Below, in pieces: positions 9,401-60,250 of a stretch of DNA of 64,000 nucleotides. Origin of the DNA: a virus. The stretch is taken from positions 1-64,000 of the IMG/VR virus record IMGVR_UViG_3300042386_001406; one strand, 5' to 3'. Made by a program: the position numbers and the translations under genes. The notes below the pieces were generated by a model. The model searched no databases and was not told the origin of the DNA. It worked only from the letters and a program-made list of their open reading frames with translations. Numbering within the stretch: position 1 is the stretch's first letter; every line of letters begins with the position of its first letter.

Positions 9401-9682
9401 TTTGTAAAGATTAAAGGTAAGCGTAACAGCTTCCAAATCCGTGCTGATATCTTGAACTTTGGTAATATGTTAAGTAACAAATGGGGTGTATCACAACGTG
9501 CTGGTGCTCCACAATTGTTGAACTTTGTTAGCCGTGACGCTGCAGGTGTTCCAACATATAGATTATCAACTCAACGTGATGCAACAAGTACTTACTTAGC
9601 AAAAGATACATATCAATACAATTCATCAGTATTTGATGTGTGGACAGCTCAGTTAGGTATTCGTTATACTTTCGGTAAGTAA
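6404..9682 (+). CDS. TonB-dependent outer-membrane receptor (Oar-like, with N-terminal carboxypeptidase-regulatory-like domain)
   Basis: Signal peptide; QITTSAISG...YTI N-domain; plug motifs NNFTIDG and INAVTRSGTN; PRLGFNW; C-terminal QLGIRYTF beta strand. Confidence 0.9.
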   Translation: MKKTILFSVFSLLAFVGFGQITTSAISGIVINEKKEVLVGATIHATHLPTGTQYTATANKQGVYVLPAVRVGGPYTIHSSYVGYKKGEVTEVNTQLGLTSNVDFVLIDEVKALKEVVISGNSTFSRQKTGAAQQFGRRELTSIPITGARTIDGITKYNPFGNGTSFGAQDSRMNNFTIDGSQFNNNFGLGSSAQAGGRTGASAISLDAIDQLQVNIAPFDIRQSGFTGAGINAVTRSGTNDIEGSVYGTQRNNSSRYVGDNARGTTVTAQKFDEKVLGFRLGAPIIKNKLFIFGNYEQIDRTEPGTTWISAGSPLTGSQVSRVRYSAMDSLSKFMKDKFNYTTGPWEGYSNTNSSNKFLVRLDWNIDAKNKLTARYVHHNSSAEINISNSQSAGAGNRTTQFNAMSFQNSGYIIQDNTRSAVLELNSKLTNTLHNNLIVSYDKQIEDRAYMSNMFPTIDIREGSATYTSVGFDPFTPDNKLNYWTFNITNNLTKYFGKHTVVGGVNFQRYQSNNLFFPASNGVYIFNSLNDFYTAANQSLANGGRPSTFAPARFQLRYSALPGGIAPMQTLESYRTDIYLQDEYNGFKNLKLTAGIRANIIEIENTALENPAITAMTFANGEKWNTSVMPKTQVLFEPRLGFNWNVKGTGKTQVRGGTGIFTGRPPLVFLSNQIGNNGVLSGFIDVSGAAAAAYGFTANPNQYFIPSTPTLPSTFDLALTDPNYKFPQVWKNNLAVDQKLPWLGLIASVEVLYNQTINAVHYYNANLDKPVGNLLGVDTRPLYAGNDNGVRVNDNVSMAAVLTNRNGAYNRSITYKLEKPVSKGIWGYVAYTNAQAEDFMSAGSIASGSWQSAQSVFGNNTLNLTTSDFVVRNRIVGLLGYRIEGGKKYGTATTLTLGYVGSQNNPFSYIVAGDLNGDRVSNNDLIFVPHKASDIRFAPLTVGTGATAVTYTEAQQQAAFDAFINQDPYLSTRRGQYAERNGLALPFLHRFDLSAAQDFFVKIKGKRNSFQIRADILNFGNMLSNKWGVSQRAGAPQLLNFVSRDAAGVPTYRLSTQRDATSTYLAKDTYQYNSSVFDVWTAQLGIRYTFGK

Positions 9683-10751: not shown

Positions 10752-11015
10752 ATGAAGCAAAATATCAACGAAATTAAGAAAATGCAGCGTATCGCTGGAT
10801 TAATTACCGAGAGTGAATACCAAGAATCAATAATGAAAGAAAATACAATACTTTCAGATGAGGCATATGATCGTATAGATGGTTTAGTTAACCAAAAAGA
10901 TATGGATATGTTACGTGATGGTGGTAGAAATATAGTACTTGATTTAACAGATGAGGGATTTGAAGACGATGAAATAATTGAGTATATATGCAGATATTTG
11001 AAAAATTTTCTATAA
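10752..11015 (+). CDS. putative head-internal protein
   Basis: N-terminal KKMQRIAGLITE resembles the scaffold C-terminus; ATATTTAT upstream. Confidence 0.55.
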   Translation: MKQNINEIKKMQRIAGLITESEYQESIMKENTILSDEAYDRIDGLVNQKDMDMLRDGGRNIVLDLTDEGFEDDEIIEYICRYLKNFL

Positions 11016-11021
11016 TAAGTA

Positions 11022-11771
11022 ATGAAGATTAGAATCAAAGAGGCACAACAAATGCCACAGGCGATATTCATGGCCGGCCCAGCTGGGGCTGGCAAATCCT
11101 TTGTTTCTAAATCATTACCACTCTCTAAATTCCAAGTAATAAATGTCGACGACGCTTATGAGGAAATGCTCAAAGCAGCTGGTATTGGAATGAAGATTAA
11201 AGACTTTACTCCTGATGAATTGTCACAAGCCGCTAAATTAATGGCGCAGGCTCAAAAAACAACTAAGGATAAATACGCCAAAGCACTCGAAAATTTAAAC
11301 GACATTATTATTGATGGAACAGGTGCAGCATCTAAGCCTTTACTCAAGAAAAAGGCAGAATTAGAGGCTTTAGGATATGAAACTATGATGGTAATGATAT
11401 ATGTTTCACCTGTAACTTCACTTGAACGTAATGCTAATAGAGAACGTTCATTAATGCCTGGTCAAGTTTTAAATACTTGGGAAAAAGTAAATAGTAACAT
11501 CAAAACATATGAACAAGCATTTGGTGACAATTTTATTTTAATAAACAATGATCCAAAAGATGCTGACATAAGTTTTGATCCTCAAGAAATAAAGCGTAGA
11601 TTTTTTGATACTGCTAAGGCTAAAGGTAAACCAAAAACACCAGAGGAATTAGCTAAGAAAAAAGCTGAAGTAGAAGCAATGAATAAAAACATTGAACAAC
11701 TACTTAAACAAAAACCAAAATTCACTCCTAGAGATCAAGCTATCTCTAAAATAAAGGCATTTATTAAATGA
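11022..11771 (+). CDS. P-loop kinase, zeta-toxin/AAA_33-like
   Basis: MAGPAGAGKS Walker A, INVDD, IIIDGT, SLERNANRER. Confidence 0.75.
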   Translation: MKIRIKEAQQMPQAIFMAGPAGAGKSFVSKSLPLSKFQVINVDDAYEEMLKAAGIGMKIKDFTPDELSQAAKLMAQAQKTTKDKYAKALENLNDIIIDGTGAASKPLLKKKAELEALGYETMMVMIYVSPVTSLERNANRERSLMPGQVLNTWEKVNSNIKTYEQAFGDNFILINNDPKDADISFDPQEIKRRFFDTAKAKGKPKTPEELAKKKAEVEAMNKNIEQLLKQKPKFTPRDQAISKIKAFIK

Positions 11772-13753
11772 TAGATTTAAATACAATATTAAACGAGTTA
11801 ACTGAAGATGATGGACAAACAACTCCACCAGCTATCTGTTACTACCCAGGTGGATTTAAACCACCACATGAAGGACACTATGAGGCTCTTAAAGATTTAG
11901 TGTCACGTCCTTACATTACTAAAGTAATAGTTTTAATTGGACATAAAACACGTGATGGTATAACTAAAGAACAAAGTAAACGTATTTGGGATTTATATTT
12001 AGCCACTACACCAATGGCTAAAGTAAGTGTTAGAATAAGTGAAGATGCCTCTCCAATTAAAGATCTATTTAGTGCCTTTGACTCTGACTTAGAACTAAAA
12101 GCATATGTCGCTGGAGCTAAATCAGAGGTAGAAGAACAAGATTATTTTACCCCATTACAAAAAGCATTTAGTACAAGAGTAATGCCTATATCAATTGATG
12201 AAAAAGTTGTTACTCAAGGTAAACGCTTGTCAGGAACTCAAGTACGTGGTTTAGTAACACAACTTAAAAAAGCAGTATTACAGTTACGTTCAATAGCTGA
12301 TAAATCATCAACTGAGTATTCTAAAGCTAGAAATGCTTATTTAAACACATATGAAGAGTTAAAAGGATGCTTTCCAGAAGCAGTTGTTCAAAAAGGACAA
12401 TATGATGATATTCTTAAAATATTAGGGATACCAGTTTTAAATGTAGACCAACTTCAAGAAAATCAAGAAGATGGTAATTTAATTATACGTGTACCTTATG
12501 CTTTAACAACTAAGATTGAGAATTTTTTAAATACAATGTTAATACCATTTGAATACTCTCAACAAGCATTTGGTGGTAAAGAAAGACGTATGTTAATTCC
12601 TAATCTAAGTGATAATAACGAACAAAAAGAAAAAGTACTTAATTATTTAAGTAAACATAACATACCTGTTAATATTGAAGAAGATTTATTTACTATTAAT
12701 TGGTGGAAACAAAGTTTAGAAGAAATTCAACTTGATGTCCCTACACCAGATGAAAAAGATGTTGATCCTGAACAACTAAAAAAAGGAATTGAAGTAGAAA
12801 AAGAACACACCAACGATGAAAAAACAGCTAAGAAAATAGCGTTAGCTCATTTAGGTGAAGATCCAAAATATTATTCTAAGTTAAAAAAAGCAGGTTTAGA
12901 AGAAACATTAACTGAACCACAAGATAAGACAGACAATATTATAGCTGATTTTATTGATTTTGCCGCTAATGCTCTTGACTTACAAAAAGTACCTAAAATT
13001 ACTTTTAGTGATGATGAGAATTTAGCTAAACAAATGCACGCGTTAGGTGCTTATCAACCTAAAACTGATGAATTATTAGTTGTTAAAGGATCAAGACTAA
13101 CAGCAGATATTTTACGCACATTAGCTCATGAGTTAGTACATCGTAAACAAGCTGAAATGGGTCCATTAGATAAAGAAGATGGTAAAACAGGTTCAGAAGT
13201 AGAAAATGAAGCTAATGCCGCCGCTGGTGTATTACTAAGACAATTTGGTAAATACAGACCAGAAATATTTGAAGAAGCAGATGCGATGAAAGGTGATTAT
13301 AAGATATACTGTGATATGGATGGTGTGTTAGTTGATTTTGATAAAGGGTATGAAGAATTAACAGGTAAAAAAGCTAGTTTTGACACACCAAAAGAAGAAT
13401 TTTGGGAACCAATTTCAAAAGCAGGTGCAGCGTTTTGGATTAAATTACAATGGATGCCTGATGGAAAACAATTATGGAATTATATTAAACCATACAATCC
13501 AGATTTACTATCAGCTCCATCACGTGAAGAATCATCTAAAATAGGTAAATTTACTTGGGTGAAAAGAAACTTACCTGGTACTAAACTTATCTTACGTTCA
13601 GCTGATCGTAAACAAGAATTTGCAACACCAAACTCTATCTTAATTGATGATAGAGCAGATAATATACAACGTTGGAAAGATGCGGGTGGTATAGGTATTC
13701 ATCACACATCAGCTGCTGATACAATACAACAATTGAAAGATTTAGGGCTATGA
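11768..13753 (+). CDS. multidomain protein: HxGH nucleotidyltransferase + DUF5661-like + HExxH domain + HAD nucleotidase
   Basis: YPGGFKPPHEGH/LSGTQVR; GIEVEKEH...AHLGEDPKYY; LAHELVH...ENEANA; YCDMDGVLVDF...LIDD. Confidence 0.75.
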   Translation: MIDLNTILNELTEDDGQTTPPAICYYPGGFKPPHEGHYEALKDLVSRPYITKVIVLIGHKTRDGITKEQSKRIWDLYLATTPMAKVSVRISEDASPIKDLFSAFDSDLELKAYVAGAKSEVEEQDYFTPLQKAFSTRVMPISIDEKVVTQGKRLSGTQVRGLVTQLKKAVLQLRSIADKSSTEYSKARNAYLNTYEELKGCFPEAVVQKGQYDDILKILGIPVLNVDQLQENQEDGNLIIRVPYALTTKIENFLNTMLIPFEYSQQAFGGKERRMLIPNLSDNNEQKEKVLNYLSKHNIPVNIEEDLFTINWWKQSLEEIQLDVPTPDEKDVDPEQLKKGIEVEKEHTNDEKTAKKIALAHLGEDPKYYSKLKKAGLEETLTEPQDKTDNIIADFIDFAANALDLQKVPKITFSDDENLAKQMHALGAYQPKTDELLVVKGSRLTADILRTLAHELVHRKQAEMGPLDKEDGKTGSEVENEANAAAGVLLRQFGKYRPEIFEEADAMKGDYKIYCDMDGVLVDFDKGYEELTGKKASFDTPKEEFWEPISKAGAAFWIKLQWMPDGKQLWNYIKPYNPDLLSAPSREESSKIGKFTWVKRNLPGTKLILRSADRKQEFATPNSILIDDRADNIQRWKDAGGIGIHHTSAADTIQQLKDLGL

Positions 13754-16474: not shown

Positions 16475-17127
16475 TGAATAAGATACAATTAAAGGAGCAT
16501 ATTGAAAAAATCATTAACTATGTAGGCCAAGAATACAATCATGGTCCTAAGTTAGTTATGAATGAATCTAAAGAACCAGTCTTTATTTCTGAAGGCTTAT
16601 ATTACCATATTGAAAATAACTTACCACTAAACGAATCAATATATCGTCCTCAATCAGCAATGTTTTTAAAATTATTTGTTGAAGCAAGAAACTTATATGA
16701 TTCTAAGCGTTTAGTATTATGTGAATCAGATCAATATTATTTTGACAATACAGATATAGGTACATTTGGTGAGTATAATGGTATTAAAGTGCCACTAGAC
16801 TTACCTCTGACCGAGGAATTTCTAACAGAAGCATTAGAAGAAGAAAAAAAACAACCAGCATTAGGTAAACCTAAGCGTGGTGGTTCTAAAAAATTCTATG
16901 TGTATGTTAAAGATCCTAAAACCAAACGTATTAAAAAAGTATCATTTGGTATGGCAGGTGGTGGCTTAAGAGCCAAATTAAACAACCCAAAAGCTAGACA
17001 AGCGTTTTCTAAACGCCACAATTGTCCTCAAAAGAAAGACAAAACTAAAGCTTCATATTGGAGTTGTCGTTTACCTCGCTATGCTAAACTATTAGGATTT
17101 AAAACAACATTTAGTGGATTTTGGTAA
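16474..17127 (+). CDS. conserved phage protein, basic C-terminal domain
   Basis: KKFYVYVK...KKVSFG...FSKRHNC...YWSCR. Confidence 0.6.
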   Translation: MNKIQLKEHIEKIINYVGQEYNHGPKLVMNESKEPVFISEGLYYHIENNLPLNESIYRPQSAMFLKLFVEARNLYDSKRLVLCESDQYYFDNTDIGTFGEYNGIKVPLDLPLTEEFLTEALEEEKKQPALGKPKRGGSKKFYVYVKDPKTKRIKKVSFGMAGGGLRAKLNNPKARQAFSKRHNCPQKKDKTKASYWSCRLPRYAKLLGFKTTFSGFW

Positions 17128-17744
17128 TGATTAGTCTAATTGACATATTACATGAAATGTATCCACCATATAAAGCAAATATGGTATCAAAAGTTAGATA
17201 TAAAGCATCTGATGTTTGGACTAATGACCAAGAATTAGCTGTAAAAAGAGGATACTTGGAAAGTGATGAACCTGAAAAAGGCACAGGTAAAAAACCTAAA
17301 GGATCTAGTCGTCGTTTATACACAGATGAAGATCCAAAAGATACAGTTAAAATTAAATTCAAAACCGCTCAAGATGTTAAAGATACATTATCAAAAAAGA
17401 CATTTAAAGCAAAACCACATGCTCGTAAGTCACAAATTATTAATGTAATCCATCAGCGTGTCAGAGCAGCTTATAATAGAGCTAAAGATCCAGATGTTAA
17501 ATCTAGATTAAAACGTGCTTTGGATTATATTGAAAAGCGTAAAGAAGCATCTAAAGAAAAAACTAAAAGTTTAAATAAAGAAACATCAGATCCACAATCA
17601 GGTAAAGCAGCACCATATGGTTCAGGATATGCTCCTATACAACAGAATGAAGACATATTAAATGAAAAATGCTGGCCTGGATATACTAAAAAAGGAATGA
17701 AAACAATGTTTGGAAAAAAATACCCTAATTGTGTAAAAAAATGA
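17127..17744 (+). CDS. basic multi-module phage protein
   Basis: ATG at 17127 gives MISLIDILHE; RRLYTDEDPKDTV module; terminal CWPGY...PNCV mini-domain. Confidence 0.6.
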   Translation: MISLIDILHEMYPPYKANMVSKVRYKASDVWTNDQELAVKRGYLESDEPEKGTGKKPKGSSRRLYTDEDPKDTVKIKFKTAQDVKDTLSKKTFKAKPHARKSQIINVIHQRVRAAYNRAKDPDVKSRLKRALDYIEKRKEASKEKTKSLNKETSDPQSGKAAPYGSGYAPIQQNEDILNEKCWPGYTKKGMKTMFGKKYPNCVKK

Positions 17745-18060: not shown

Positions 18061-18324
18061 ATGAGTCAACCTTATGTAGACTTAGTTGTGACAGATGAAT
18101 ATGTGATTAGGGAATTTGATAAAAACATTGACCCTATAGAGCTAATGTGGCATCGAGATGATGAAAACAGGATGGTTGAAGCTATAGAACCAACAGATTG
18201 GCTAGTACAACTAGACAACCAGTTACCAATGTCTATGACCCAACCAATATTTATACCACGTCATATGTGGCATAGAACTATAAAAGGCACAGGTAAATTA
18301 AAGATAAAAATATATAAATCATGA
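18061..18324 (+). CDS. cupin-like protein
   Basis: WHRDDENR...FIPRHMWHRTIKG. Confidence 0.6.
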   Translation: MSQPYVDLVVTDEYVIREFDKNIDPIELMWHRDDENRMVEAIEPTDWLVQLDNQLPMSMTQPIFIPRHMWHRTIKGTGKLKIKIYKS

Positions 18325-18761
18325 AAAAATCTGAATTAAAACAATTAATCAGAGAAGCAATCGAAGAAGTAAAACCTAAAGTTGAAGAAGATGTAATCAA
18401 CGAAGGATTTGCTCCTGAAACTGATGAAGTTGGCTCATTTTGGGTGGTTGAAAAACCATCTACTAGCGCTACTTTAGATGACATTTGCTTTGAATGCGAA
18501 AATGTAATGTACTTTGCTCGTCAAATTGCTGGTGGTTTAAAACCAGAAGATATCAAAGGTGTATTCACTAAAGAAGCTAAAGCTAAAAAGTTAGCTGAAA
18601 AATTACTTAAAGCTCGTGACACTAAAAAAGAAGAAGTAAAACAAGCAGCTGAAGCTTATAAAAAAATGAAAGAAGAAACTTTAGCAAAAGTACAAGAGTA
18701 CATGAAAAATAAGAAAGCTACTAAACAAGTAGTTGACGAGTTAAAAGACGAAGTTAAGTAA
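18321..18761 (+). CDS. hypothetical protein with MKKSELKQLIRE leader
   Basis: Leader motif plus charged helical C-terminus. Confidence 0.55.
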   Translation: MKKSELKQLIREAIEEVKPKVEEDVINEGFAPETDEVGSFWVVEKPSTSATLDDICFECENVMYFARQIAGGLKPEDIKGVFTKEAKAKKLAEKLLKARDTKKEEVKQAAEAYKKMKEETLAKVQEYMKNKKATKQVVDELKDEVK

Positions 18762-25635: not shown

Positions 25636-27228
25636 ATGAGCGATCAACAACAGAATATTAAAGATATTATTAAACAGGAATATGTTAAATGTGCTACTGA
25701 TCCTGTTTATTTTATGAAAAAATATTATTGGATTCAACACCCACAACGTGGTCGTATCCAATTTAATTTATATCCATTTCAGGAAGGTGTATTACATCAG
25801 TTTAAAAAGAATCGTTACAGTATAGTTAACAAGTCAAGACAGTTAGGTATCTCTACTCTAGTGTCAGCTTATTCACTTTGGTTAATGTTATTTAACAAAG
25901 ACAAAAACGTACTTTGTATAGCCACTAAGCAAGAAACTGCTAAAAACATGGTTACCAAAGTAAAATTTGCTTATGATAACCTACCCAGCTGGCTTAAAAT
26001 AAATGCTTTAGAAAACAATAAACTAAGTTTAAAACTAGCAAATGGATCTCAGATAAAAGCAATTGGTGCTACTGGCGACGCAGGTCGATCTGAAGCAGTA
26101 TCATTACTGTTACTAGATGAGGCCGCCTTTATTGAAGGTATAGATGAGATATTTGCCTCTGCTCAACAAACTTTGGCCACTGGTGGTCAATGTATAGCTA
26201 TTTCAACTCCATTTGGTACAGGTAACTGGTTCCATAGAACATTTATTGGTGGTGAAGAAGGAAAAAACGGATTTGTATCTATAAAATTACCTTGGACAGT
26301 ACACCCAGAACGAACTCAAAAATGGAGAGATGAACAAGATGCTATCTTAGGAATTAGAAACGCCGCTCAAGAATGTGATTGTGACTTTACAACTTCAGGT
26401 GATACAGTTGTTGAACCTGATATTTTAAATTTTTATATATCAACATATCAAGTAGATCCTATCTCAAAAGGTGGATTTGATGGTAACTTATGGCGTTGGG
26501 AATTTCCAGATTATACAAAACAATATATGGTTGTTGCTGACGTAGCTAGAGGTGATGGTAAAGATTATTCAGCTTGTCATGTTATTGATATAGCTGAAGC
26601 TAAACAAGTAGAAGAATATAAAGGACAAATTGGTACTCGTGACTATGGTCATCTATTAGTATCAATAGCTACAGAATGGAACAATGCTTTGTTAGTAATT
26701 GAAAATGCTAATATAGGATGGGACACAATTCAAACAGTTATAGATAGAGGATACCAAAACATGTATTACTCATCTAAATCAGACACAGCTAATATTACAA
26801 TGGATAATTTCTTAAGTCGAAACGACAGTAATTTAATACCTGGTTTTACCAACTCAACAAAAACTAGACCACTTGTAGTAGCTAAATTAGAGGCTTATAT
26901 GCGTGATAGAGCTTGTGTTATTCAATCACGTCGATTATTAGAAGAATTAAGAACATTTGTTTGGAAGAATGGTAAAGCACAAGCTAATGATGGATATAAT
27001 GACGACTTGATAATGGCTTTTGGTATTGGTATGTTTTTACGTGATACAGCTTTAAAATTCTCTCAAACAGGTATGGACTTAACTCGCGCTTCACTTGGAG
27101 GTATAGGAAAAATTTCATATAATACCGGACCAAGTGGCTTTTATACCCCACATAGTCCGCAACAAAATAATCCTTGGCAAATGGATAATGGTAGAGGACA
27201 AATGGAAGATATTAGCTGGTTGGTTTAG
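25636..27228 (+). CDS. terminase large subunit (T4 gp17-like)
   Basis: LYPFQ, KSRQLGIST, LLLDEAAF, ISTPFG, ADVARG, DDLIMA. Confidence 0.95.
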   Translation: MSDQQQNIKDIIKQEYVKCATDPVYFMKKYYWIQHPQRGRIQFNLYPFQEGVLHQFKKNRYSIVNKSRQLGISTLVSAYSLWLMLFNKDKNVLCIATKQETAKNMVTKVKFAYDNLPSWLKINALENNKLSLKLANGSQIKAIGATGDAGRSEAVSLLLLDEAAFIEGIDEIFASAQQTLATGGQCIAISTPFGTGNWFHRTFIGGEEGKNGFVSIKLPWTVHPERTQKWRDEQDAILGIRNAAQECDCDFTTSGDTVVEPDILNFYISTYQVDPISKGGFDGNLWRWEFPDYTKQYMVVADVARGDGKDYSACHVIDIAEAKQVEEYKGQIGTRDYGHLLVSIATEWNNALLVIENANIGWDTIQTVIDRGYQNMYYSSKSDTANITMDNFLSRNDSNLIPGFTNSTKTRPLVVAKLEAYMRDRACVIQSRRLLEELRTFVWKNGKAQANDGYNDDLIMAFGIGMFLRDTALKFSQTGMDLTRASLGGIGKISYNTGPSGFYTPHSPQQNNPWQMDNGRGQMEDISWLV

Positions 27229-27258: not shown

Positions 27259-29148
27259 ATGGGATTATTTGATAATTTAAAACGATTATTCTCTTCAGAT
27301 GTCGTTATTCGTAATGTAGGCGGCGATGAACTAAGAGTAATTGATACAGATCGTATACAGTCATTAGGTACTTTACAAACTAATGCACTTGTAGACCGAT
27401 TTACCAAAATTTATACAACATCTGGTGCTGGTATTTACAACGTTAACAACGTTTATAACTACCAAACACTAAGAGTTCAACTTTATACTGACTATGAAGC
27501 TATGGATACTGACGCTATTGTAGCTTCAGCACTTGATATTATAGCCGATGAGTGTACTTTAAAAAATGAACATGGTGAAATGCTCCATGTTCGCTCTAGT
27601 GATGAAAATATTCAAAAGATATTATACAACTTATTCTATGATGTGTTAAATATCGAATTCAACTTATGGAGTTGGGCTCGTAACATGTGTAAGTATGGTG
27701 ACTTTTATCTTAAATTAGAAATAGCTGAGAAATTTGGTGTATATAATGTTATACCATTCTCCGCTTACTCAATTATCAGAGAGGAAGGTACTAATCCTAA
27801 AAATCCTACTTATGTAAGATTTAAATATGATCCTACATCAGTATCTGGTATCACTACTCCTCAAACACAGTACGCTTTAGGTACATCAACATCAGATATT
27901 TACTTTGAAAACTATGAAATGGCTCACTTTAGATTAATAAGTGATGTTAACTATTTACCTTATGGTAGAAGTTATTTAGAGCCAGGCCGTAAGATATTCA
28001 AACAAATGATATTAATGGAAGATGCGATGTTAATTCATCGTATTGTTCGTGCTCCTGAAAAACGTATTTTCTATATGAATGTAGGTGCTATTCCTCCAAA
28101 TGAGGTAGAAGCATTTATGCAAAAAACAGTACAAAAACTTAAGAAAGTACCTTTTGTAGATCCAACAACAGGCCAATATAACCTTAAGTACAATATGATG
28201 AACATGATGGAAGACTTTTACATTCCTGTAAGAGGTAACGACCAATCAACTCGTATTGATACAGCAAAAGGTTTAGAATATAATGGTATTGAAGACGTAG
28301 CTTACTTAAGAGATAAGTTATTCGCTGCTCTTAAGATACCTAAAGCATTTATGGGTTATGAAAAAGACTTAACTGGTAAAGCTACATTAGCCGCTGAAGA
28401 TATTAGATTTGCTCGTACAGTAGAACGTATTCAAAAGATATTATTATCAGAATTAACTAAGATTGCCTTAGTACACTTATATACTCAAGGATATGATGGT
28501 GAAATGTTAACCAACTTTGAGTTAAACTTAACTACACCTTCTATCATTTATGATCAAGAACGTGTTAACTTAATGAAAGAAAAAGTTGAGTTAGCAAGTA
28601 ACATTATGGAGTCTAATTTATTACCAACTGATTGGATTTATGATAACTTATTCCATTTCAGCCAAGACCAATATGATGAATATCGTGATTTAATTATTGA
28701 AGATAAAAAACGTAAGTTTAGATTAGCTCAAATTGAAGGTGAAGGTAATGACCCAGATGAATCAGGCCAGGTATATGGTACACCACACCAATTAGCTGTC
28801 GCTTATGGTAAGGGTAGAAAAGATGGAGCTGTGCCAACAGGATATAACGAGAAAAATCCTAATGAACCTGTACACTTAGTTGGCCGTCCTGAGGCTTCAG
28901 TATCAAATATTAATCGTCAAGATAATCCATTTGGTAAAGATAGATTAGGTACTAAATCATATAGCACAGCAGGTGTAGACCAAGAAGATACATTAGCAAA
29001 AACTCAATGGAAAGGTGGATCACCATTAGCATTAGAAACATATCTTAAAAACAAGAAAATGTTTGATGGATTACCAGTAAATCGCCGTACAACTTTATTT
29101 GAAAGTGATTTACTGAATGAAAACAACATCCGCGACGAGATCAAATAA
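27259..29148 (+). CDS. portal protein (T4 gp20-like)
   Basis: ALDIIADE, LMEDAMLIHRIVRAPEKRIFY, EDFYIPVRG, ALKIPK, EDIRF. Confidence 0.95.
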   Translation: MGLFDNLKRLFSSDVVIRNVGGDELRVIDTDRIQSLGTLQTNALVDRFTKIYTTSGAGIYNVNNVYNYQTLRVQLYTDYEAMDTDAIVASALDIIADECTLKNEHGEMLHVRSSDENIQKILYNLFYDVLNIEFNLWSWARNMCKYGDFYLKLEIAEKFGVYNVIPFSAYSIIREEGTNPKNPTYVRFKYDPTSVSGITTPQTQYALGTSTSDIYFENYEMAHFRLISDVNYLPYGRSYLEPGRKIFKQMILMEDAMLIHRIVRAPEKRIFYMNVGAIPPNEVEAFMQKTVQKLKKVPFVDPTTGQYNLKYNMMNMMEDFYIPVRGNDQSTRIDTAKGLEYNGIEDVAYLRDKLFAALKIPKAFMGYEKDLTGKATLAAEDIRFARTVERIQKILLSELTKIALVHLYTQGYDGEMLTNFELNLTTPSIIYDQERVNLMKEKVELASNIMESNLLPTDWIYDNLFHFSQDQYDEYRDLIIEDKKRKFRLAQIEGEGNDPDESGQVYGTPHQLAVAYGKGRKDGAVPTGYNEKNPNEPVHLVGRPEASVSNINRQDNPFGKDRLGTKSYSTAGVDQEDTLAKTQWKGGSPLALETYLKNKKMFDGLPVNRRTTLFESDLLNENNIRDEIK

Positions 29149-29184: not shown

Positions 29185-30039
29185 ATGCGTATAAAACATA
29201 ACAAATTTCGCAACACTGGTGTATTATTTGAGCTATTAGTGCGTCAAATAGCATCAGACACATTGGCGAATACTGATTCTAAGGCGGTAAAGATTGTGAA
29301 AAAATATTTTCATAGTAATGAAATAGCAAAAGAGCATAAACTCTATCATACTATTTTAACAGCGCCACGCTTAAGTGAAGGTAAAGCTGAAGCATTAGTT
29401 AATACTACTGTTGACTTAGCTAAAAAATTAAATAAAGAAACATTACTTAAGGAAAAATACAACTTAATTAAAGAAATTAAGAAGCATTATAATCTTGAAA
29501 GTTTCTTTAAAGCTAAAGTTAACAACTATAAAGCTCTAGCTGCTGCTTACACATTATTTGAAGCCGCTATGGATAATAAGTTTGTTGAGCCTAAACAATT
29601 AGTGCTTAATAAACTTACTGTAATGGAACATATCACTAAGAAAACCTTAGTTGAAAATAAAGAAAACGAAGTTGAACAAGTATTAGCTAAAGAAGATAAA
29701 AATGTACGTTTATTAGCATATAAAATGTTAATTGAGAAGTTCAACACTAAATACTCAACATTAAGTACACGTCAAAAGTTAGTACTTAAAGAATTCATTA
29801 ACAATATTTCTAATCCTGAACACCTTAAAACATATATCAACGAGAACCTTAATAAGGTTAAAACTGAGTTAACTGATTTAGTTAAACAAGTTAATGACAA
29901 AACAACTGAAATTAAGTTAAACGAAGTTATAACGTTGATAAAGCCAATATCTAACAAGTCGTCTGTAAAAGATGAACATTTAGTAGCATTACTTCAATAT
30001 CAGCAACTAGCTGAGGAAATTAAGAAAGTAAATGGATAA
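29185..30039 (+). CDS. conserved head-module protein
   Basis: MRIKHNKFRNTGVLFELL; helical; lies between portal and protease. Confidence 0.55.
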   Translation: MRIKHNKFRNTGVLFELLVRQIASDTLANTDSKAVKIVKKYFHSNEIAKEHKLYHTILTAPRLSEGKAEALVNTTVDLAKKLNKETLLKEKYNLIKEIKKHYNLESFFKAKVNNYKALAAAYTLFEAAMDNKFVEPKQLVLNKLTVMEHITKKTLVENKENEVEQVLAKEDKNVRLLAYKMLIEKFNTKYSTLSTRQKLVLKEFINNISNPEHLKTYINENLNKVKTELTDLVKQVNDKTTEIKLNEVITLIKPISNKSSVKDEHLVALLQYQQLAEEIKKVNG

Positions 30040-31677: not shown

Positions 31678-33063
31678 ATGAAAAAACCAATCAACGAAAT
31701 AGAAAGACTTAAACTTATCGCTGGTTTAATTAACGAAATTAATTATAATGACTCAGTATACGGCGTTAAAAGAACAACATTAACTGAGGGTAAAAAGAAA
31801 AAAGAAGTTAAAGAATTATCTATAGACGTTGCTAACCCATACGAATACCGTATGGGTCTTCAATATGAACTAGAGCAAATGGATGACTATAGTAATGAAT
31901 CTTTAGAAAAAGCTAAATCAATTGTATTGAAGAACTTAGCTAAAGATGTTAACTTCTATACTACTTTACTTAACCAAGATCAATCACCTTATAAGTTTGA
32001 AGCTCCTGAAACAGACAAACCAGGTATGCAAGCTAAAGCTGATGGTTATTTAAAGAAAGAATTAAAGAAAGATGCTAAAGCTAATGTACAAGATACATTA
32101 GGTAAAAAAGAAGCAGGTTCTAAAAAACCTAAAGGTGTTAAAGTAATGCCTGATAAAGGTGTAACTGGCTCTGAAAAAACCATTAAAGAGAATCTTATTA
32201 ATGAGGTAATATTAAAAGTATATCATTATGATCCATCATCAGGTGATTTAGAAGATGTGGATGTTGAATATTTTAGTTCTGAAGAAGAAGCTAAAAAAGC
32301 TGCTTTAGCTCATCATTGGCAAGTAGCTTTTGATAATGGAGATACAGATCTTAGTAAAGAAGATTTTATATCTCAAACTAACTTTGATGACTTTGAACCA
32401 TATAACAACTACGATTATAAAATAGTATCTGATAAAGGTAATATTAAAGAAGGATTAGAAGAAGCTTCAAAAGATCCACATGACAAAGCTAAGGTAATGA
32501 AAGTGGATGGTAAATTCGAAGTTTATACAACTCAAGATGGTGAAATAAAAACATTCGATAAAGAAGCTGATGCTAAAGCATTTGCTGATAAATATAACAG
32601 TGAGAATGTTAAAGAAGGTTCATTCATGGGTGGTGTTGATTTAGGTGCTTCATTTGATAAAATGAAAGGACAAATGAATGCTGAAGATGAATTTAATTCA
32701 TTAATGTCTAAGTATGACTGGTATTATGAAATGAGCGATGATCCACGTGCTTATGATCGTGGAACAGCTATGAATAGTAAATTAAAGATGTTAGGTAAGC
32801 AAATTGGTGTTGATAAAGCTATTGAATTATTCAACTCTAAAGCTCCATCTGATAGAAAAATAACATCTTCTTTCTTTATGGAAGGTGAAGATAAGCATTC
32901 TAAAATTAAAGAAGCATTAAAAGCTGCTTTAAAGAAAGCTTTAAAAGAAGAAGATCCAGCTATGGCTAGAATAGAAAAAGACGAAGAAGCCGCTGAAAAA
33001 GCTTTAGCACAAATATTAACAAAGAAAGCAGCTGTATTAGCTAAACCAGGAACCCAAGGATAA
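31678..33063 (+). CDS. putative head-internal polyprotein
   Basis: RLKLIAGLINE leader; DUF5661-like MGLQYE...KNLAKDVNFY; YDWYYEMSDD module. Confidence 0.5.
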   Translation: MKKPINEIERLKLIAGLINEINYNDSVYGVKRTTLTEGKKKKEVKELSIDVANPYEYRMGLQYELEQMDDYSNESLEKAKSIVLKNLAKDVNFYTTLLNQDQSPYKFEAPETDKPGMQAKADGYLKKELKKDAKANVQDTLGKKEAGSKKPKGVKVMPDKGVTGSEKTIKENLINEVILKVYHYDPSSGDLEDVDVEYFSSEEEAKKAALAHHWQVAFDNGDTDLSKEDFISQTNFDDFEPYNNYDYKIVSDKGNIKEGLEEASKDPHDKAKVMKVDGKFEVYTTQDGEIKTFDKEADAKAFADKYNSENVKEGSFMGGVDLGASFDKMKGQMNAEDEFNSLMSKYDWYYEMSDDPRAYDRGTAMNSKLKMLGKQIGVDKAIELFNSKAPSDRKITSSFFMEGEDKHSKIKEALKAALKKALKEEDPAMARIEKDEEAAEKALAQILTKKAAVLAKPGTQG

Positions 33064-33692
33064 TGAACAAACAAGTATTAATAGAATATTATTCATTTAC
33101 ACCTTCGCCTCGTGCTTTGCATGAGGCAAAGTTGTCTCCATCTAAAAACTTAATTGTTGAAGGTGTAGTACAACGCGCAGATGCTAAAAACCAAAACGGA
33201 CGTGTTTATCCTAAAGACACATTGAAACGTGAAGTTGAAAAATATATCCTTGGTCCAATAGCTGAAAACAGAGCATTAGGTGAACTAGACCACCCAGACT
33301 CATCAATCATTAACTTAAAGAATGTATGTCATAACATTAAATCTTTATGGTGGGATGGTGATGATTTAATGGGTAAAATTGAAGTATTACCTACACCAAG
33401 TGGTAATATATTAAAAGAATTATTTTTAAATAATATAACTGTTGGTATTTCTTCTCGTGGTATGGGTTCAGTAAAACCACTAGGTGAAGGAACAATGGAG
33501 GTACAAGATGACTTTGAATTATTATGTTGGGATTTTGTTTCAACACCATCAACTCAAGGCGCATTTATGAGACCAACAGGACTAAGTGAAAGTTATGTAC
33601 CTGGTACTCGTTCATTTGGTAAGTATACTAAAGTAAATAATCTAATCTCAGAAATTATTTGTAGTCAAACAGGTGTTTGCTGCATTAGATAA
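33063..33692 (+). CDS. prohead protease (T4 gp21-like)
   Basis: NQNGRVYP, ALGELDHP, GISSRGMGS, DFVSTPS. Confidence 0.95.
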   Translation: MNKQVLIEYYSFTPSPRALHEAKLSPSKNLIVEGVVQRADAKNQNGRVYPKDTLKREVEKYILGPIAENRALGELDHPDSSIINLKNVCHNIKSLWWDGDDLMGKIEVLPTPSGNILKELFLNNITVGISSRGMGSVKPLGEGTMEVQDDFELLCWDFVSTPSTQGAFMRPTGLSESYVPGTRSFGKYTKVNNLISEIICSQTGVCCIR

Positions 33693-33885: not shown

Positions 33886-35223
33886 ATGACAAATCAAGAA
33901 TTATTCAGTCAAGCAATTGCTGATGCTAAAGCTGTTCGCGACGCTGCGGTAGCAAATGCTAAAGCCGCTCTTGAAGAAACATTTACTCCAAAAATCATGT
34001 CTATGCTTTCAGCTAAATTAAATGAGTTGGAAGAAGAAGGATTAGAAGAGAAAATGGAAAAAGAAGAAGAAGGCTACAAAAAAGAAGAAGGCCATGAAGC
34101 CGAAATTGGTTATGGAGCTGCTTCACAAAAACCTCAAATTGAAGGTGAAATGGAAGAAGCTGACAACATGGAAGAAGCTGATCTAGAAGAAATCTTAGCC
34201 CAACTTGAAGCTGAAGAAAAAGGCAAGAAAGAAGAAGGCAAAGAAGAAATGGAAGAGGCTAAAAAAGACATGGAAGAAGGTAAAAAAGAAGTTGAAGAAG
34301 CTAAGAAAAAAGACAACGACAAAAAAGAAAAAGTTGAAGAGTCTTTAGAAGAAGCTGAAGGTGACGACGAAGTTACTGAACTCACTGTCGATGAGCTTAA
34401 AGACATTATCCGTGACGTATTAAAAGACGTAATGGGTGGTGGAGAAGAAGCTGGTGAAGAAGAACTTGAAATGGATGATGAAGCTGGTGAAGAAGAGGAA
34501 ACTGAAGATGAAGAATCTATCAGCCTCGATGAATTATTAGCTGAATTAGACAAAGAAGAAGGTAAGAAAGTTGAAGAGAAAAAAGAAGTTGAGGAAAAGA
34601 AAGAAAAAGTTGAAGAAGCCACAGAAGTAGAAGAAGGCATCTCTGATGTTAAAAATTTCTTCTTAAAAGTAGCTGATGACATTAAAAAAGGACTTGGTTT
34701 AGCATGTGTTCAAGAATACAATGCTGCTATCAAAGCTGGTAAATCAGACAAAGAAGCAAGAATCATATATGACACTTGCTTATCTGGTGAAAAAGGCGGA
34801 TTCCAAGGTCCATCTGTTACTAAAGCTACATCTGGTATTGCTGAAAAGAAAGATGAAATGGAAGAAGCTAAGAAAGACTTAGAAGAAGCTATTTCTACTA
34901 TCAAGACTTTGCAAACTGAACTTAACGAAGTTAATCTCTTAAATGCGAAACTTCTTTATACAAATAAGATCTTCAAAGCTAAGTCTTTAAATGAAGCTCA
35001 AAAAGTTAAGGTATTAAAAGCTTTTGATAAAGCTACAAATGTAAGCGAAGTTAAAACTGTTTACAACACTTTATCTGAGTCTTTTGAAACTAAAACTAAA
35101 ACTACAATTAAAGAATCAGTTGGATTTGCTTCTAAAGCAGTAGGTGTTGCCCCTGCCCAACCGATTGTAGAAGGTGATGCTGCTATTCGCCGTATGCAAC
35201 AATTAGCGGGAATCGTAAAATAA
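33886..35223 (+). CDS. prohead core/scaffold protein
   Basis: Extremely E/K-rich; between protease and capsid; LNEVNLLNAKLLY; C-terminal RRMQQLAGI. Confidence 0.85.
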   Translation: MTNQELFSQAIADAKAVRDAAVANAKAALEETFTPKIMSMLSAKLNELEEEGLEEKMEKEEEGYKKEEGHEAEIGYGAASQKPQIEGEMEEADNMEEADLEEILAQLEAEEKGKKEEGKEEMEEAKKDMEEGKKEVEEAKKKDNDKKEKVEESLEEAEGDDEVTELTVDELKDIIRDVLKDVMGGGEEAGEEELEMDDEAGEEEETEDEESISLDELLAELDKEEGKKVEEKKEVEEKKEKVEEATEVEEGISDVKNFFLKVADDIKKGLGLACVQEYNAAIKAGKSDKEARIIYDTCLSGEKGGFQGPSVTKATSGIAEKKDEMEEAKKDLEEAISTIKTLQTELNEVNLLNAKLLYTNKIFKAKSLNEAQKVKVLKAFDKATNVSEVKTVYNTLSESFETKTKTTIKESVGFASKAVGVAPAQPIVEGDAAIRRMQQLAGIVK

Positions 35224-35252: not shown

Positions 35253-36920
35253 ATGAGTCAAATTCAATCTTTAATCGAATCTGCTAACCCATGGCAGTCA
35301 CAGCAAGGCGAGGCTTCTCGTTTAGCTAACAAGTGGGAAAAATCAGGTTTGTTAGAAGGTCTTACTGACTACAACAAATCTAATATGGCTGTAATGCTTG
35401 AGAACCAAGCTAAGCAATTAGTTGTTGAACAGTCAAACACTGGAACTGGTGGTACTTTTACTCCAGGAACTGGTGAGCAGTGGGCTGGCGTAGCTTTACC
35501 ACTCGTTCGTAAGGTATTCGGACAAATCGCTTCTAAAGAATTCGTTTCTGTACAACCAATGAGCTTACCAGCTGGTTTAGTGTTCTTCTTAGATTTCCAA
35601 TACGGAACTAATAAAGATCCATTCACTTCTGGTAATTCACTTTATGGTACAGCTTACACTCAAGGTGATTCTGGCTTTGGTAACTTAGCTCAGGGTGGTC
35701 TTTATGGTGCTGGCCGTTGGGGTTATTCAGTTAACCAATTCTCATCTTCATTAACTGGTGCTACATCTGCAGCTGCTGCTACATTTGATGCTATCAACTG
35801 GGATTCTGATTATTCTCAGTCTATTGTTAATAGCAAGATCATTCAAATTGCTTTCACAACTGGTTCAGCTGGTTTCCCAACTAACTTTGATGTGAATGGT
35901 GTTCGTGATCTTTATTTGATCGATGGTACTCCTGCTTCTCCAGGAACTGTTATCACTTCAGCTACATTATTACCTCAGTTTACTACAATTGCTGGTGGTA
36001 CAGTTAAGTTATTCGTAACTGCTTCTGGTGTTGCTGCTGTTAACGCTATCACAGGTGGTATGACTTTATTCTTCAACAAGAAGACTGCTGATAACGCTCG
36101 TGGTGATTTTGAAAATGCTGCTGGTGCTGGTTATCCAAACGCAGAAAGCAATACAGAAATCGTAATCCCAGAGATCAATGTACAATTACGTTCTGAGACT
36201 ATTGCTGCTAAAACTCGTAAGTTAAAAGCACAATGGACTCCAGAATTCGCTCAAGACTTAAACGCTTACCAAAACTTGGATGCTGAAGCTGAATTAACTT
36301 CTATGTTATCAGAGTACATCTCTTTAGAGATCGACTTAGAAATCATGGATATGTTAATCCAGAACGCTCCAATCGTTGAACAATGGTCAGCTAAAGTGGG
36401 CGGTACTGTAACTGCAGGTTCATCTAACATTGCTTACAACACATCAGGTGTTTATTACACTCAGATGACTTGGTTCCAAACTTTAGGTATCAAATTACAA
36501 AAAGTTTCTAACCAAATTCACCAACGTACTTTACGTGGTGGTGCTAATTTCATGGTAGTTTCTCCAACTGTAGCTACTATCCTTGAGTCAATTCCAGGAT
36601 TTGCAGCTGATACAGACGGTGCAGCTGACAACATGAAGTATGCATTCGGCGTACAGAAAATTGGTCAATTAAACAGCCGTTACAAAGTTTACAAGAATCC
36701 TTACATGATCGAGAATACTATCTTAATGGGATTCCGTGGTAACCAATTCTTAGAGACTGGTGCTGTTTATGCTCCATACATTCCGTTAATCATGACTCCA
36801 TTAGTGTACGATCCAAATACCTTCACTCCAAGAAAAGGTATCATGACTCGTTACGCGAAGAAAATGGTACGTCCTGAATTCTACGGTAAGGTATTTATTG
36901 CTGACTTACAAGTTATCTAA
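35253..36920 (+). CDS. major capsid protein (T4 gp23-like)
   Basis: VQPMSLPAGLVF, AKTRKLKAQWTPEFAQDL, YAPYIPL, FTPRKGIMTRY. Confidence 0.95.
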   Translation: MSQIQSLIESANPWQSQQGEASRLANKWEKSGLLEGLTDYNKSNMAVMLENQAKQLVVEQSNTGTGGTFTPGTGEQWAGVALPLVRKVFGQIASKEFVSVQPMSLPAGLVFFLDFQYGTNKDPFTSGNSLYGTAYTQGDSGFGNLAQGGLYGAGRWGYSVNQFSSSLTGATSAAAATFDAINWDSDYSQSIVNSKIIQIAFTTGSAGFPTNFDVNGVRDLYLIDGTPASPGTVITSATLLPQFTTIAGGTVKLFVTASGVAAVNAITGGMTLFFNKKTADNARGDFENAAGAGYPNAESNTEIVIPEINVQLRSETIAAKTRKLKAQWTPEFAQDLNAYQNLDAEAELTSMLSEYISLEIDLEIMDMLIQNAPIVEQWSAKVGGTVTAGSSNIAYNTSGVYYTQMTWFQTLGIKLQKVSNQIHQRTLRGGANFMVVSPTVATILESIPGFAADTDGAADNMKYAFGVQKIGQLNSRYKVYKNPYMIENTILMGFRGNQFLETGAVYAPYIPLIMTPLVYDPNTFTPRKGIMTRYAKKMVRPEFYGKVFIADLQVI

Positions 36921-58887: not shown

Positions 58888-59730
58888 ATGCCATATAGTG
58901 AAGGTACAAAACAATATGTTGGAAGAAGTACAGTAACAAATTATTCAATACCAAGTCCAAATCCTTTTGCTGAAGGTAGTATATCAGTACCTAGAGTATT
59001 AAATTACACAAATGGTATAAGAACTGTTCCTATAATGCATAGAGCATTTAGAAATTTAGAGATAAAATATGCTAATGCTTTAGTAGCCACAGCTTGTGAA
59101 TATAGAGGTGTTAGTGCTGGTAGTTTAAGAGTTTTAGATATTGGATATGGATTAGGATATAGTACCCAAAGATTCTATGAATTAGGAGTTGGTACTTATC
59201 ACTGTGTTGAATTAAATGAAAGTATATGGAATGACGCTAATAGCCATGATTATGCTCAAGGCAGTGGTGCAGCAGTGGCTATCCCTGAAAGTTATCAGTT
59301 TTTTTGGACTAGTTTTGAACAATACGCTGATGGCTATGAGGGGGGAAAAGGTGAGGAGGCACAATGGTATGATATAATATATTATAGTCCAAGTGATGAT
59401 TTTGGTAATATGGGAATATTTAATATCCTTAGACGAGTAAGTAAACAAGGCACTATATTAGGTGTTCAAGGTATCCCTTTATTTGGTAGCGCGGTGAATA
59501 TAGGTGACTTTGTTGTTCAAACACCAAGTGGAGTAGCTCCAGATGCTGATGTTTATGATTCTTCTTTTACAGTTGGTATGTATAATGCTCTAAATAATAT
59601 AGGATATTTTAGTGTATATTTTCAATACTTAAATTGTGATGGAGGAGATGGATTCGGTCTTCCATTCCCTATTGAGGTTGGAAGTCCATGCGGTAATGGA
59701 ACATGGATGTCTGATCAACCACGTTTATAA
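58888..59730 (+). CDS. class I SAM-dependent methyltransferase-like protein
   Basis: VLDIGYGLG motif I, HCVELN motif II, YDIIY. Confidence 0.7.
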   Translation: MPYSEGTKQYVGRSTVTNYSIPSPNPFAEGSISVPRVLNYTNGIRTVPIMHRAFRNLEIKYANALVATACEYRGVSAGSLRVLDIGYGLGYSTQRFYELGVGTYHCVELNESIWNDANSHDYAQGSGAAVAIPESYQFFWTSFEQYADGYEGGKGEEAQWYDIIYYSPSDDFGNMGIFNILRRVSKQGTILGVQGIPLFGSAVNIGDFVVQTPSGVAPDADVYDSSFTVGMYNALNNIGYFSVYFQYLNCDGGDGFGLPFPIEVGSPCGNGTWMSDQPRL

Positions 59731-59791
59731 AAATTACAATTTGGTTACCTTACAAATCTAATATATATTTATATATAACAATAAATAAATT

Positions 59792-60250
59792 ATGGGAAAA
59801 ATCACATTAAAGTTACATGAAATTTATTCACTACATGGTGAATTAAACGGTTTAGTAAATAATCAAACTGGTGAAGTTGTTTCAAAAGGATTATTAGCTG
59901 AAAAACTTAAACTAAGTACCAAATACTATGTTACTGAATTAGCTAAAACCGTTGATAAAGAAAGAGAAATAGTTGATAAAGTAAAAGAAGAATTAATTAA
60001 AAAACATGGTGAAGTAGATGAAAATGGAGGTGTTTTCATTTCACGATTTATCAACACTGTAAAAAATGAAGAAGGTAAGATCATATCAGGAGATATTAAT
60101 CCTAAGATAATATCTTTTGAAAAAGAATTTAATGAGTTTCTTCAAGATGAAAAAACCATTGAATATAAAGAATTTAAACTATCTGATTTTGATGGTATTG
60201 AAACTGAAGGTATTTACACTACTTTTTTTAAACTTGTAAAACCTGAATAA
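59792..60250 (+). CDS. phage protein (possible tail assembly chaperone)
   Basis: LIKKHG...FNEFL; helical. Confidence 0.5.
   Translation: MGKITLKLHEIYSLHGELNGLVNNQTGEVVSKGLLAEKLKLSTKYYVTELAKTVDKEREIVDKVKEELIKKHGEVDENGGVFISRFINTVKNEEGKIISGDINPKIISFEKEFNEFLQDEKTIEYKEFKLSDFDGIETEGIYTTFFKLVKPE

Follow-up and report, generated by a model that had tools for sequence, protein, structure and literature searches.

The scaffold protein of a distant T4-like myophage was shown to end in a short tail whose motif recurs close to the N-termini of two other proteins encoded by the same phage (class C leaders), and in related phages the same motif was found on a range of unrelated proteins. For class C, the sequences showed the shared motif itself, its location at protein termini and its conservation, together with a cut-site consensus next to it and a prohead protease gene in the genome. 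We propose that class C cargo is loaded into the prohead through the contact made by the scaffold tail and that the protease would then clip off both the tail and the leader, and we give this proposal as a whole a probability of roughly 0.6. The first-pass annotation had suggested that several classes of cargo leaders copy motifs of the scaffold. This was upheld for class C, for which the likeness is conserved, position-specific and portable; for classes A and E the likeness was weak, and other segments of the scaffold that bear cut sites resembled leaders to a similar degree.

The head module and the scaffold protein

The window (the whole stretch of 64,000 nucleotides analyzed here) is part of a viral contig of 76.5 kb with ~33% GC and is from a Bacteroidota-type myophage, a distant member of the T4-like phages. 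The head genes were found in the T4 order, i.e. terminase, gp20 portal, S77/gp21 protease, acidic scaffold and gp23 capsid protein (Table 1). Several proteins of no known kind are encoded between the portal and the prohead protease genes, and the gene at 31678–33063 lies directly upstream of the protease gene. The nearest cultured relatives, according to the identity of the capsid protein, were Flavobacterium phage immuto (56%), Microcystis phage Mel-JY01 (50%) and Rhodothermus phage RM378 (37%).

Table 1. Features of the window referred to in the text, with positions counted from its first nucleotide.
Feature	Position	Strand	Remark
Class C leader MKQNINEIKKMQRIAGLITE, 87-aa protein (gene 10752–11015)	10752–10811	+	Best proteome-wide match to the scaffold tail
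Class A leader MIDLNTILNE, 661-aa protein	11768–11797	+	
Class A leader MISLIDILHE	17127–17156	+	1.5 bits against the scaffold profile
Class E leader MKKSELKQLIRE, 146-aa protein	18321–18356	+	Top match in the contig to the island E peptide and profile
Large terminase	25636–27228		
gp20-type portal	27259–29148		
Class C leader MKKPINEIERLKLIAGLINE, 461-aa protein (gene 31678–33063)	31678–31737	+	Second-best proteome-wide match to the scaffold tail
Prohead protease, Peptidase_S77, T4 gp21 type	33063–33692	+	Pfam PF03420, E 2.5e-30; PHROG 207
Scaffold, protein in T4 gp22 position, 445 aa, acidic, helical	33886–35223	+	
Scaffold island DLEEILAQLE, first repeat copy, class A look-alike	34180–34209	+	Kept clade-wide
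Scaffold island TVDELKDIIRDVL, class E look-alike	34384–34422	+	Kept in most clade scaffolds
Scaffold island ISLDELLAEL, second repeat copy, class A look-alike	34519–34548	+	Kept clade-wide; L-A-E is a predicted cut site
P-I-V-E, predicted prohead-protease cut site	35161–35172	+	Cutting would free a 17-residue tail peptide
Scaffold C-terminal tail IRRMQQLAGIVK	35185–35220	+	Predicted helix 432–440 and non-helical AGIVK 'hook' (AF2)
Major capsid protein, T4 gp23 type	35253–36920	+	Pfam PF07068, E 3e-78

The scaffold gene is located between the S77 protease gene and the gp23-type capsid gene, which is the place of gene 22 in T4. No Pfam or PHROG family was found for the protein and a PDB sequence search likewise gave nothing useful. 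A homologue search with its C-terminal domain returned only close, unnamed relatives, and none of the more than 7,300 homologues present in public metagenomes has been named. A scaffold profile showed a weak match to T4 gp22 (hhalign E 0.003, probability 9.9%, 48 columns), with L-T-E-S-Q-K-x-K-V in common. The 445-aa protein was called a scaffold because of its position, its composition and this weak gp22 match. Like a gp22-type prohead core protein it is acidic, helical and rich in predicted protease sites, and the AF2 model consists of helices with disordered acidic linkers between them. The protease-type sites conserved in the scaffold are L-A-E, within islands, and I-V-E, before the tail. 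Three conserved islands were seen in the acidic linkers of the scaffold alignment, two of them A-type repeats and one of E type.

The scaffold tail and the class C leaders

Besides a C-terminal helical domain (residues 318–403, pLDDT above 90), AF2 predicted a disordered linker of ~28 residues (404–431) that holds P-I-V-E, followed by a helix (432–440) and a non-helical end (441–445). The model and the conservation both agree with an amphipathic helix with a short hook at the extreme C-terminus, carried on a flexible tether. The motif occupies the free C-terminus, 8 residues beyond the P-I-V-E site; in T4, gp21 cuts by an L/I-x-E rule (PMC9026906). The tail consensus R-[MWF]-Q-x-[LI]-A-G-I-[IVK] was C-terminal across the clade and present in Mel-JY01 and RM378 too, and almost every scaffold of the clade had P-I-[VIL]-E within its 17-residue tail region. 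The clade-wide ending can thus be written as P-I-[VIL]-E, 4–6 residues, and then hydrophobic-x-R-[MWF]-Q-x-[LI]-A-G-I-[IVK]. A MAFFT-based clade profile of the C-terminus was blurred by unequal tail lengths, and regular-expression and BLOSUM scans were therefore used for the tail.

All peptides quoted in the first-pass annotation were recovered from the window; its range for the tail was 3 nt off and took in the stop codon. Each scaffold peptide was used as a query against the 23,404 ten-residue windows of the other ORFs of the contig (BLOSUM62). With RRMQQLAGIV as the query, KKMQRIAGLI of ORF 10752 (score 32) and ERLKLIAGLI of ORF 31678 (score 23) ranked first and second among the 23,404 windows, both of them covering residues 9–18 of their proteins, and the next score was 18. 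For 500 shuffled versions of the tail query, the best score was 21.1 ± 2.5 and never reached 32, which confirms the claimed match between the scaffold C-terminus and the class C leaders. Both top matches were N-terminal in only 0.6% of the shuffles. In the AF2 model of the 87-aa class C protein, a helix (residues 2–14) was followed by non-helical AGLIT and then by a folded domain, i.e. the cargo model has the same shape as the scaffold tail, at the opposite end of the protein.

Although tail and leaders are present in one genome, their DNA identity was 44–71% and synonymous sites differed, which shows that the likeness is kept at the protein level. The leaders thus did not arise by recent copying, and the word 'copies' used in the first-pass annotation is appropriate for class C at the protein level only. 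A recent duplication of tail DNA into the leaders is ruled out by the same nucleotide identity. Convergence on any common partner, the protease included, would give the same picture of tail and leaders.

The tail–leader pair was also found in related phages. For the immuto tail (SRWQKLAGIIK), the top two non-self matches were RRMQKLAGIIT and KRMQFLAGIIT, both located at residue 11 of small ORFs that have nothing else in common (the class C ORFs of immuto are at 111675 and 25061), and one immuto leader matched the scaffold over 16 residues (LSEQFRRMQKLAGIIT compared to VSEQVSRWQKLAGIIK). Each of three complete IMG/VR genomes (G001–G003; 155–183 kb) contained the scaffold tail and 2–4 N-terminal leaders at residues 8–24. 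A survey of 80 IMG/VR loci around capsid homologues (1,128 ORFs, 333k residues) with the pattern [MWFLI]-[QKRE]-x-[LIMF]-A-G-[LIVM] gave 96 occurrences, 70 of them at the C-terminus, 20 within the first 25 residues and six elsewhere, so that 90 of the 96 were terminal. The C-terminal cases were nearly all scaffolds, and three of them were a second, non-scaffold protein encoded beside the scaffold gene in three relatives. The mature parts of the class C proteins belonged to at least 14 unrelated families, which shows that the class C leader, a short N-terminal peptide common to unrelated proteins, is a portable module. The orthologue of the 461-aa protein was found to bear the same leader in many related loci. 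Chance likeness of amphipathic helices without biological meaning would fit the class A pairs quoted within the window; for class C it is refuted by the shuffled queries (0/500), the replication in four other genomes and the terminal positions (90/96), and we regard it as hardly credible.

In RM378 and Mel-JY01 the tails read …LERIKRLAGL and …ERMKKLAGIVK, respectively, and no N-terminal L-A-G leaders were found in either genome. Since these phages have the tail without the leaders, we conclude that the tail is older and has a role of its own, and that the leaders were added later in one sub-clade. No co-variation of the leaders with the tail variant of their own genome was seen in immuto and G001–G003, because M is retained in the leaders at the position at which the scaffolds have W or F. 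A subclade with the variant tail …NRFTELVKFNR (L067–69, 73, 74 and 85) showed neither L-A-G leaders nor any obvious leaders matching the variant tail within the ±10 kb flanks.

Among 27 distinct class C leaders, 25 had a hydrophobic-x-E site directly after A-G-hydrophobic, and 22 had an additional one just upstream of the motif. An ending of the [I/L]-x-E type (25/27 leaders) is thus found together with an S77 protease gene (PF03420) in the genome. The placing of these sites also bears on another reading, in which R-M-Q-x-L-A-G-I would be bound by the prohead protease or its zymogen and would mark substrates by bringing hydrophobic-x-E sites to the enzyme, with no addressing to the shell. The motif was always 3–8 residues from a hydrophobic-x-E site, and the order of site, short spacer and motif was seen in 22 of the 27 leaders and in the scaffold, as would be expected of such an exosite. 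However, the motif is missing from most of the predicted substrates (leaders of classes A, B, and E, the capsid protein and the internal scaffold sites), T4 gp21 works without an exosite of this kind (PMC9026906), and coat-binding tails are classically found at the very C-terminus of scaffolds, which makes an exosite quite improbable.

Class A and E leaders and the scaffold islands

The A repeat of the scaffold, x-[DS]-L-[DE]-E-[IL]-L-A-E-L, has two copies (residues 98–108 and 211–221), and the E island, [ST]-x-[DE]-[DE]-L-K-x-[IF]-I-[RE]-D-V, has one (residues 166–179). The class E island peptide ELKDIIRDVL is encoded at 34393–34422, within a helix predicted for residues 168–184. Class A and class E leaders were each present on several ORFs, and every leader class ended in [I/L/V]-x-E.

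In the peptide scan, ELKDIIRDVL had ELKQLIREAI (ORF 18321, residue 5) as its first-ranked match, with a score of 29 compared to 23 for the next; 6.6% of the shuffled queries scored as high as 29, and the class E likeness put forward in the first-pass annotation is marginal within the window. For class A, ISLDELLAEL scored 23 and DLEEILAQLE 21, values equalled by 43% and 92% of the shuffled queries, respectively, and interior matches tied with the leaders, so that the likeness claimed for these two peptides did not hold within the window. Compared to shuffled queries, the likeness was thus clearly better for class C, borderline for class E and no better for class A in the window.

Clade profiles made from scaffolds only were scored on ~1,000 ORFs of five genomes, with the threshold at 99.9% of the interior. 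Above it, 17 N-terminal matches were found for A and 12 for E, where ~4 were expected for each. Fully permuted profiles gave 5.3 ± 3.4 matches for A and 4.4 ± 2.9 for E, and the observed count was reached by none of 150 permutations for A and by 2.7% for E; when the cut-site columns were fixed and the upstream columns permuted, p was ~0.03 for A and ~0.025–0.03 for E. The N-terminal excess for A and E in clade profiles is therefore dependent on residue order and modest. Thus, across related phages the class C likeness was replicated (immuto, G001–G003 and the 80 loci), and for A and E the comparison gave only modest signals (p ~0.03 and ~0.025). MIDLNTILNEL (11768) was the top match to the scaffold profile, with 16.4 bits compared to 6.9 for the next N-terminal match, and only this leader and MKKSELKQLIREA (18321) stood out against the scaffold profiles. 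The A and E leaders of immuto itself were not among its top ten in the scaffold-profile scan.

In the reverse direction, with leader profiles, the top 3–32 of 20,000–50,000 interior windows included a scaffold segment in seven of seven genomes, in most cases the matching island. Within the contig, island E was the best interior match to the class E leader profile, and ISLDELLAEL was third among the interior matches to the class A leader profile. A scan of all scaffold 10-mers showed raised N-terminal likeness at the three islands and also at residues 40–49, 326–340, 339–348 and 424–433, all of which bear hydrophobic-x-E sites. Only the tail had a large margin, 25–30 bits over the threshold compared to at most 13.5 for every other scaffold segment. 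We conclude that the A and E leaders have a helical, cut-site-bearing pattern in common with the scaffold islands, beyond composition, and that the resemblance of these leaders to internal scaffold helices is real but weak.

Since other hydrophobic-x-E segments are equally leader-like, a shared context of helix and protease site accounts for classes A and E no less well than mimicry of docking. Taken generally, such an explanation would make the leader–scaffold likeness that of helical substrates of one prohead protease, with no docking surface involved, and we consider the odds on it about even. It agrees with the [I/L/V]-x-E ending of all leader classes and the L-A-E within the scaffold A islands, with the leader-like character of other site-bearing scaffold 10-mers, with class A pairs no better than shuffled peptides in the window, and with a signal of only p ~0.03 once the cut-site columns are fixed. 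It fails for class C, where 8–11 common residues (R-hydrophobic-Q-x-hydrophobic-A-G-hydrophobic-hydrophobic) are distinct from the cut site, where the motif lies on opposite sides of that site in scaffold and leader, and where the margin of the tail is matched by no other segment. Because the motif is C-terminal in the scaffold, 8 residues past the site, and is present in leaderless relatives, the class C resemblance is not due to a shared cut site alone. Island E has Asp where a cut site would have Glu, which favours more than a cut site there as well, given that in T4 an Asp in place of the site Glu blocks cutting and not targeting (PMC9026906). Class A and E leaders are probably ordinary T4-type capsid-targeting propeptides, whose likeness to scaffold helices may reflect common helical protease substrates.

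Proposed loading route and known systems

According to the proposed route, the scaffold would end in a docking peptide made up of an amphipathic helix (RRMQQL) and a hook (AGIVK), tied to the scaffold body by the ~28-residue disordered linker with P-I-V-E. In the clade, many unrelated proteins carry the same peptide at their N-terminus, among them the two in the window (ORFs 10752 and 31678), with a predicted [I/L]-x-E protease site directly after the leader motif. Class C proteins would enter the assembling prohead through the contact of the scaffold tail which, by analogy with other phages, would be on the capsid protein, at its inner face or its N-arm, or alternatively on the scaffold core. 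The S77 protease would cut the scaffold at P-I-V-E, by which the scaffold would be freed for removal, and would cut the cargo at the site after the leader, by which the cargo would be freed inside the head. We infer docking, packaging and cleavage, as well as the identity of the receptor, for which the gp23-type capsid protein is the candidate. The route would unite two established principles, the removal of a core-directed leader as in T4 and the copying of a capsid-binding scaffold tail by another protein.

To our knowledge, all comparable cases that have been solved, among them P22, phi29 and herpesvirus, show contact of the scaffold C-terminus with coat protein. Alternatively, the tail, and perhaps the islands, could be self-associating helices that knit the core together, so that cargo would join the bundles and no separate coat receptor would be needed. 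A self-pairing helix predicts an identical motif on both partners, the small A-G pair would allow close packing of helices, and the internal proteins of T4 co-purify with gp22 and have been described as core-targeted (PMC9026906, PMC3012670). However, the predicted helix of only ~9 residues is short for a stable bundle, and the C-termini of the solved comparable scaffolds, that of 80alpha included (PMC5644958), contact coat protein. Coat docking and homotypic pairing are both possible readings, the latter with the odds well against it, and a protease exosite is less likely. In a wider form of the docking proposal, the scaffold could serve as an address board on which the tail and the internal helices act as separate docking channels, each copied by one of the leader classes C, A, and E, with the tail channel on the inner face of the capsid as in 80alpha. 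This extension seems unlikely to us; if true, the phage would set the place and the copy number of dozens of cargo proteins in the prohead.

The targeting sequence of T4 (CTS) has an affinity for the core, addresses proteins to it and is removed at L/I-x-E (PMC9026906, PMC3012670). As with the leaders described here, it is a short N-terminal peptide on unrelated proteins (IPI–IPIII and Alt) with an L/I-x-E end, and it is removed by an S77 protease, gp21. In contrast to T4, several leader classes are present here on far more proteins, and one of them repeats the C-terminal tail of the scaffold; the tail of T4 gp22 (…VYAKVASRF) is without the L-A-G-I motif. A relation of the T4 targeting sequence to the scaffold termini is not described in the T4 reviews consulted, and T4 may, judged by sequence, follow a similar logic of scaffold copies. 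By eye, the N-terminus of T4 gp22 (MLKEQLIAE) resembles the CTS of IPII/IPIII (MKTYQEFIAE) (PMC8442874).

How the T4 CTS is recognized has been a standing question since the 1990s. A leader class equal to the docking tail of the scaffold offers a concrete answer, in which cargo would use the scaffold contact and be freed by the same protease, and this answer would hold for an aquatic and Bacteroidota phage group of great abundance (scaffold family of more than 7,300 members). In that case, the class C leader would provide a naturally occurring, removable tag of ~20 residues by which foreign proteins could be brought into heads of the T4 type, and its motif would give a sequence rule for predicting phage proteins that are delivered into the host with the DNA.

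In encapsulins, which form a shell of the HK97 fold, short terminal peptides direct cargo of various kinds to the inner face of this shell. Unlike the leaders described here, these peptides are usually C-terminal and uncleaved, and there is no scaffold whose tail they copy. In herpesviruses and in phages of the lambda/P2 type, the C-terminal tail of the scaffold binds the major capsid protein, is common to the protease and is released by the maturation protease. As proposed here, the tail is thus shared with another head protein, which is thereby co-packaged; however, in those systems the genes are nested in frame and the protease is the only other protein with the tail, which it also has at its C-terminus, whereas here separate genes carry an N-terminal leader.

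The scaffold of phage 80alpha and the CpmB protein of SaPI1 have a common C-terminal 'helix-and-hook' (RIIK), which consists of the last ~16 scaffold residues, is copied by CpmB and binds one site on the capsid N-arm (PMC5644958). In both cases a second protein bears a copy of the scaffold tail, here predicted to form a short amphipathic helix with a 5-residue non-helical end. Inspection of the two hooks showed a mere resemblance, in that only the ending G-I-[IV]-K is similar to R-I-I-K. CpmB belongs to a parasite and redirects the size of the capsid, whereas the leaders described here are on the phage's own proteins; the copy is N-terminal and accompanied by a predicted protease site. No paper on these motif strings was found in a literature search. 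We rate the finding as a targeting propeptide of the T4 type combined with a copy of the scaffold tail.

Tail motifs on other proteins of the relatives

In three relatives (L009, L021 and L044, loci fetched around capsid homologues), a non-scaffold protein adjoining the scaffold gene was found to carry the scaffold tail at its own C-terminus, ending in …RLKKLAGL, …RLQKLAGLK and …RWQKLAGII, respectively. Two of these three second proteins also contained an MRIRI(I)KE leader at the N-terminus, so that, judged by sequence, both ends of these two would bear an address peptide. Fourth among the matches to the scaffold tail was the C-terminal helix (…LLQYQQLAEEIKKVNG) of the protein encoded downstream of the portal gene in the window, a protein whose counterparts in relatives end in …LMQYYELVNELRTL or similar; this may be another terminal docking helix.

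In the sub-clade comprising loci L067-L069, L073, L074 and L085, the scaffold tail was replaced by …KIYNRFTELVKFNR, which does not contain A-G, and L-A-G leaders were not seen in the 10 kb of flanking sequence available on either side. The sub-clade offers a natural setting in which to ask whether tail and leaders co-evolve.

Scaffold insert and leader-bearing proteins

The non-acidic scaffold insert, not present in the scaffolds of most relatives, was confidently folded by AF2 as two helices (residues 242-283 and 288-300; pLDDT up to 93). In the 87-aa class C protein (ORF 10752), the mature part is a small helical module, which is found again at the C-terminus of several longer proteins from the head region in relatives.

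Coordinates of the features described
Feature	Location	Remark
Second tail-bearing non-scaffold proteins	L009:7638-8498; L021:7868-8659; L044:7765-8643	C-terminal motif
Non-acidic scaffold insert	window 34606-34785	residues ~242-300; AF2
Mature part of class C protein	window 10839-11012	residues 30-87 of ORF 10752
Proteins with ORF 10752-type C-terminal module (examples)	L015:5698-6210; L012:6190-6894; G003 59007-59819	
Conserved gene downstream of portal gene	window 29185-30039	
T4 gene 22	L114:6118-6927	N-terminus compared with T4 IPIII targeting sequence

Two complete class C leaders, MDKMDMNEEFTRIQKLAGVITE and MKKQILNEEFKRMQKLAGIINE, were found 33 residues apart in one reading frame of the 154,840-bp IMG/VR genome G003 (67235-68569), both in the interior of the called ORF; either the start was called wrongly or the leader units are arranged in tandem. 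Separately, a 1,092-aa ORF with phage genes on both sides (window 6404-9682) showed a Bacteroidota-style signal peptide, MKKTILFSVFSLLAFVGFGQ.

Comparison with T4

The capsid targeting sequence of T4 IPII/IPIII (MKTYQEFIAE) is similar to the N-terminus of T4 gp22 (MLKEQLIAE), and the C-termini of gp22 (…VYAKVASRF) and gp21 (…YMALAEAMKKAL) share a loose hydrophobic-x-x-hydrophobic-A pattern. Given these likenesses at both termini, the idea that a leader resembles a scaffold terminus may also fit T4 itself.
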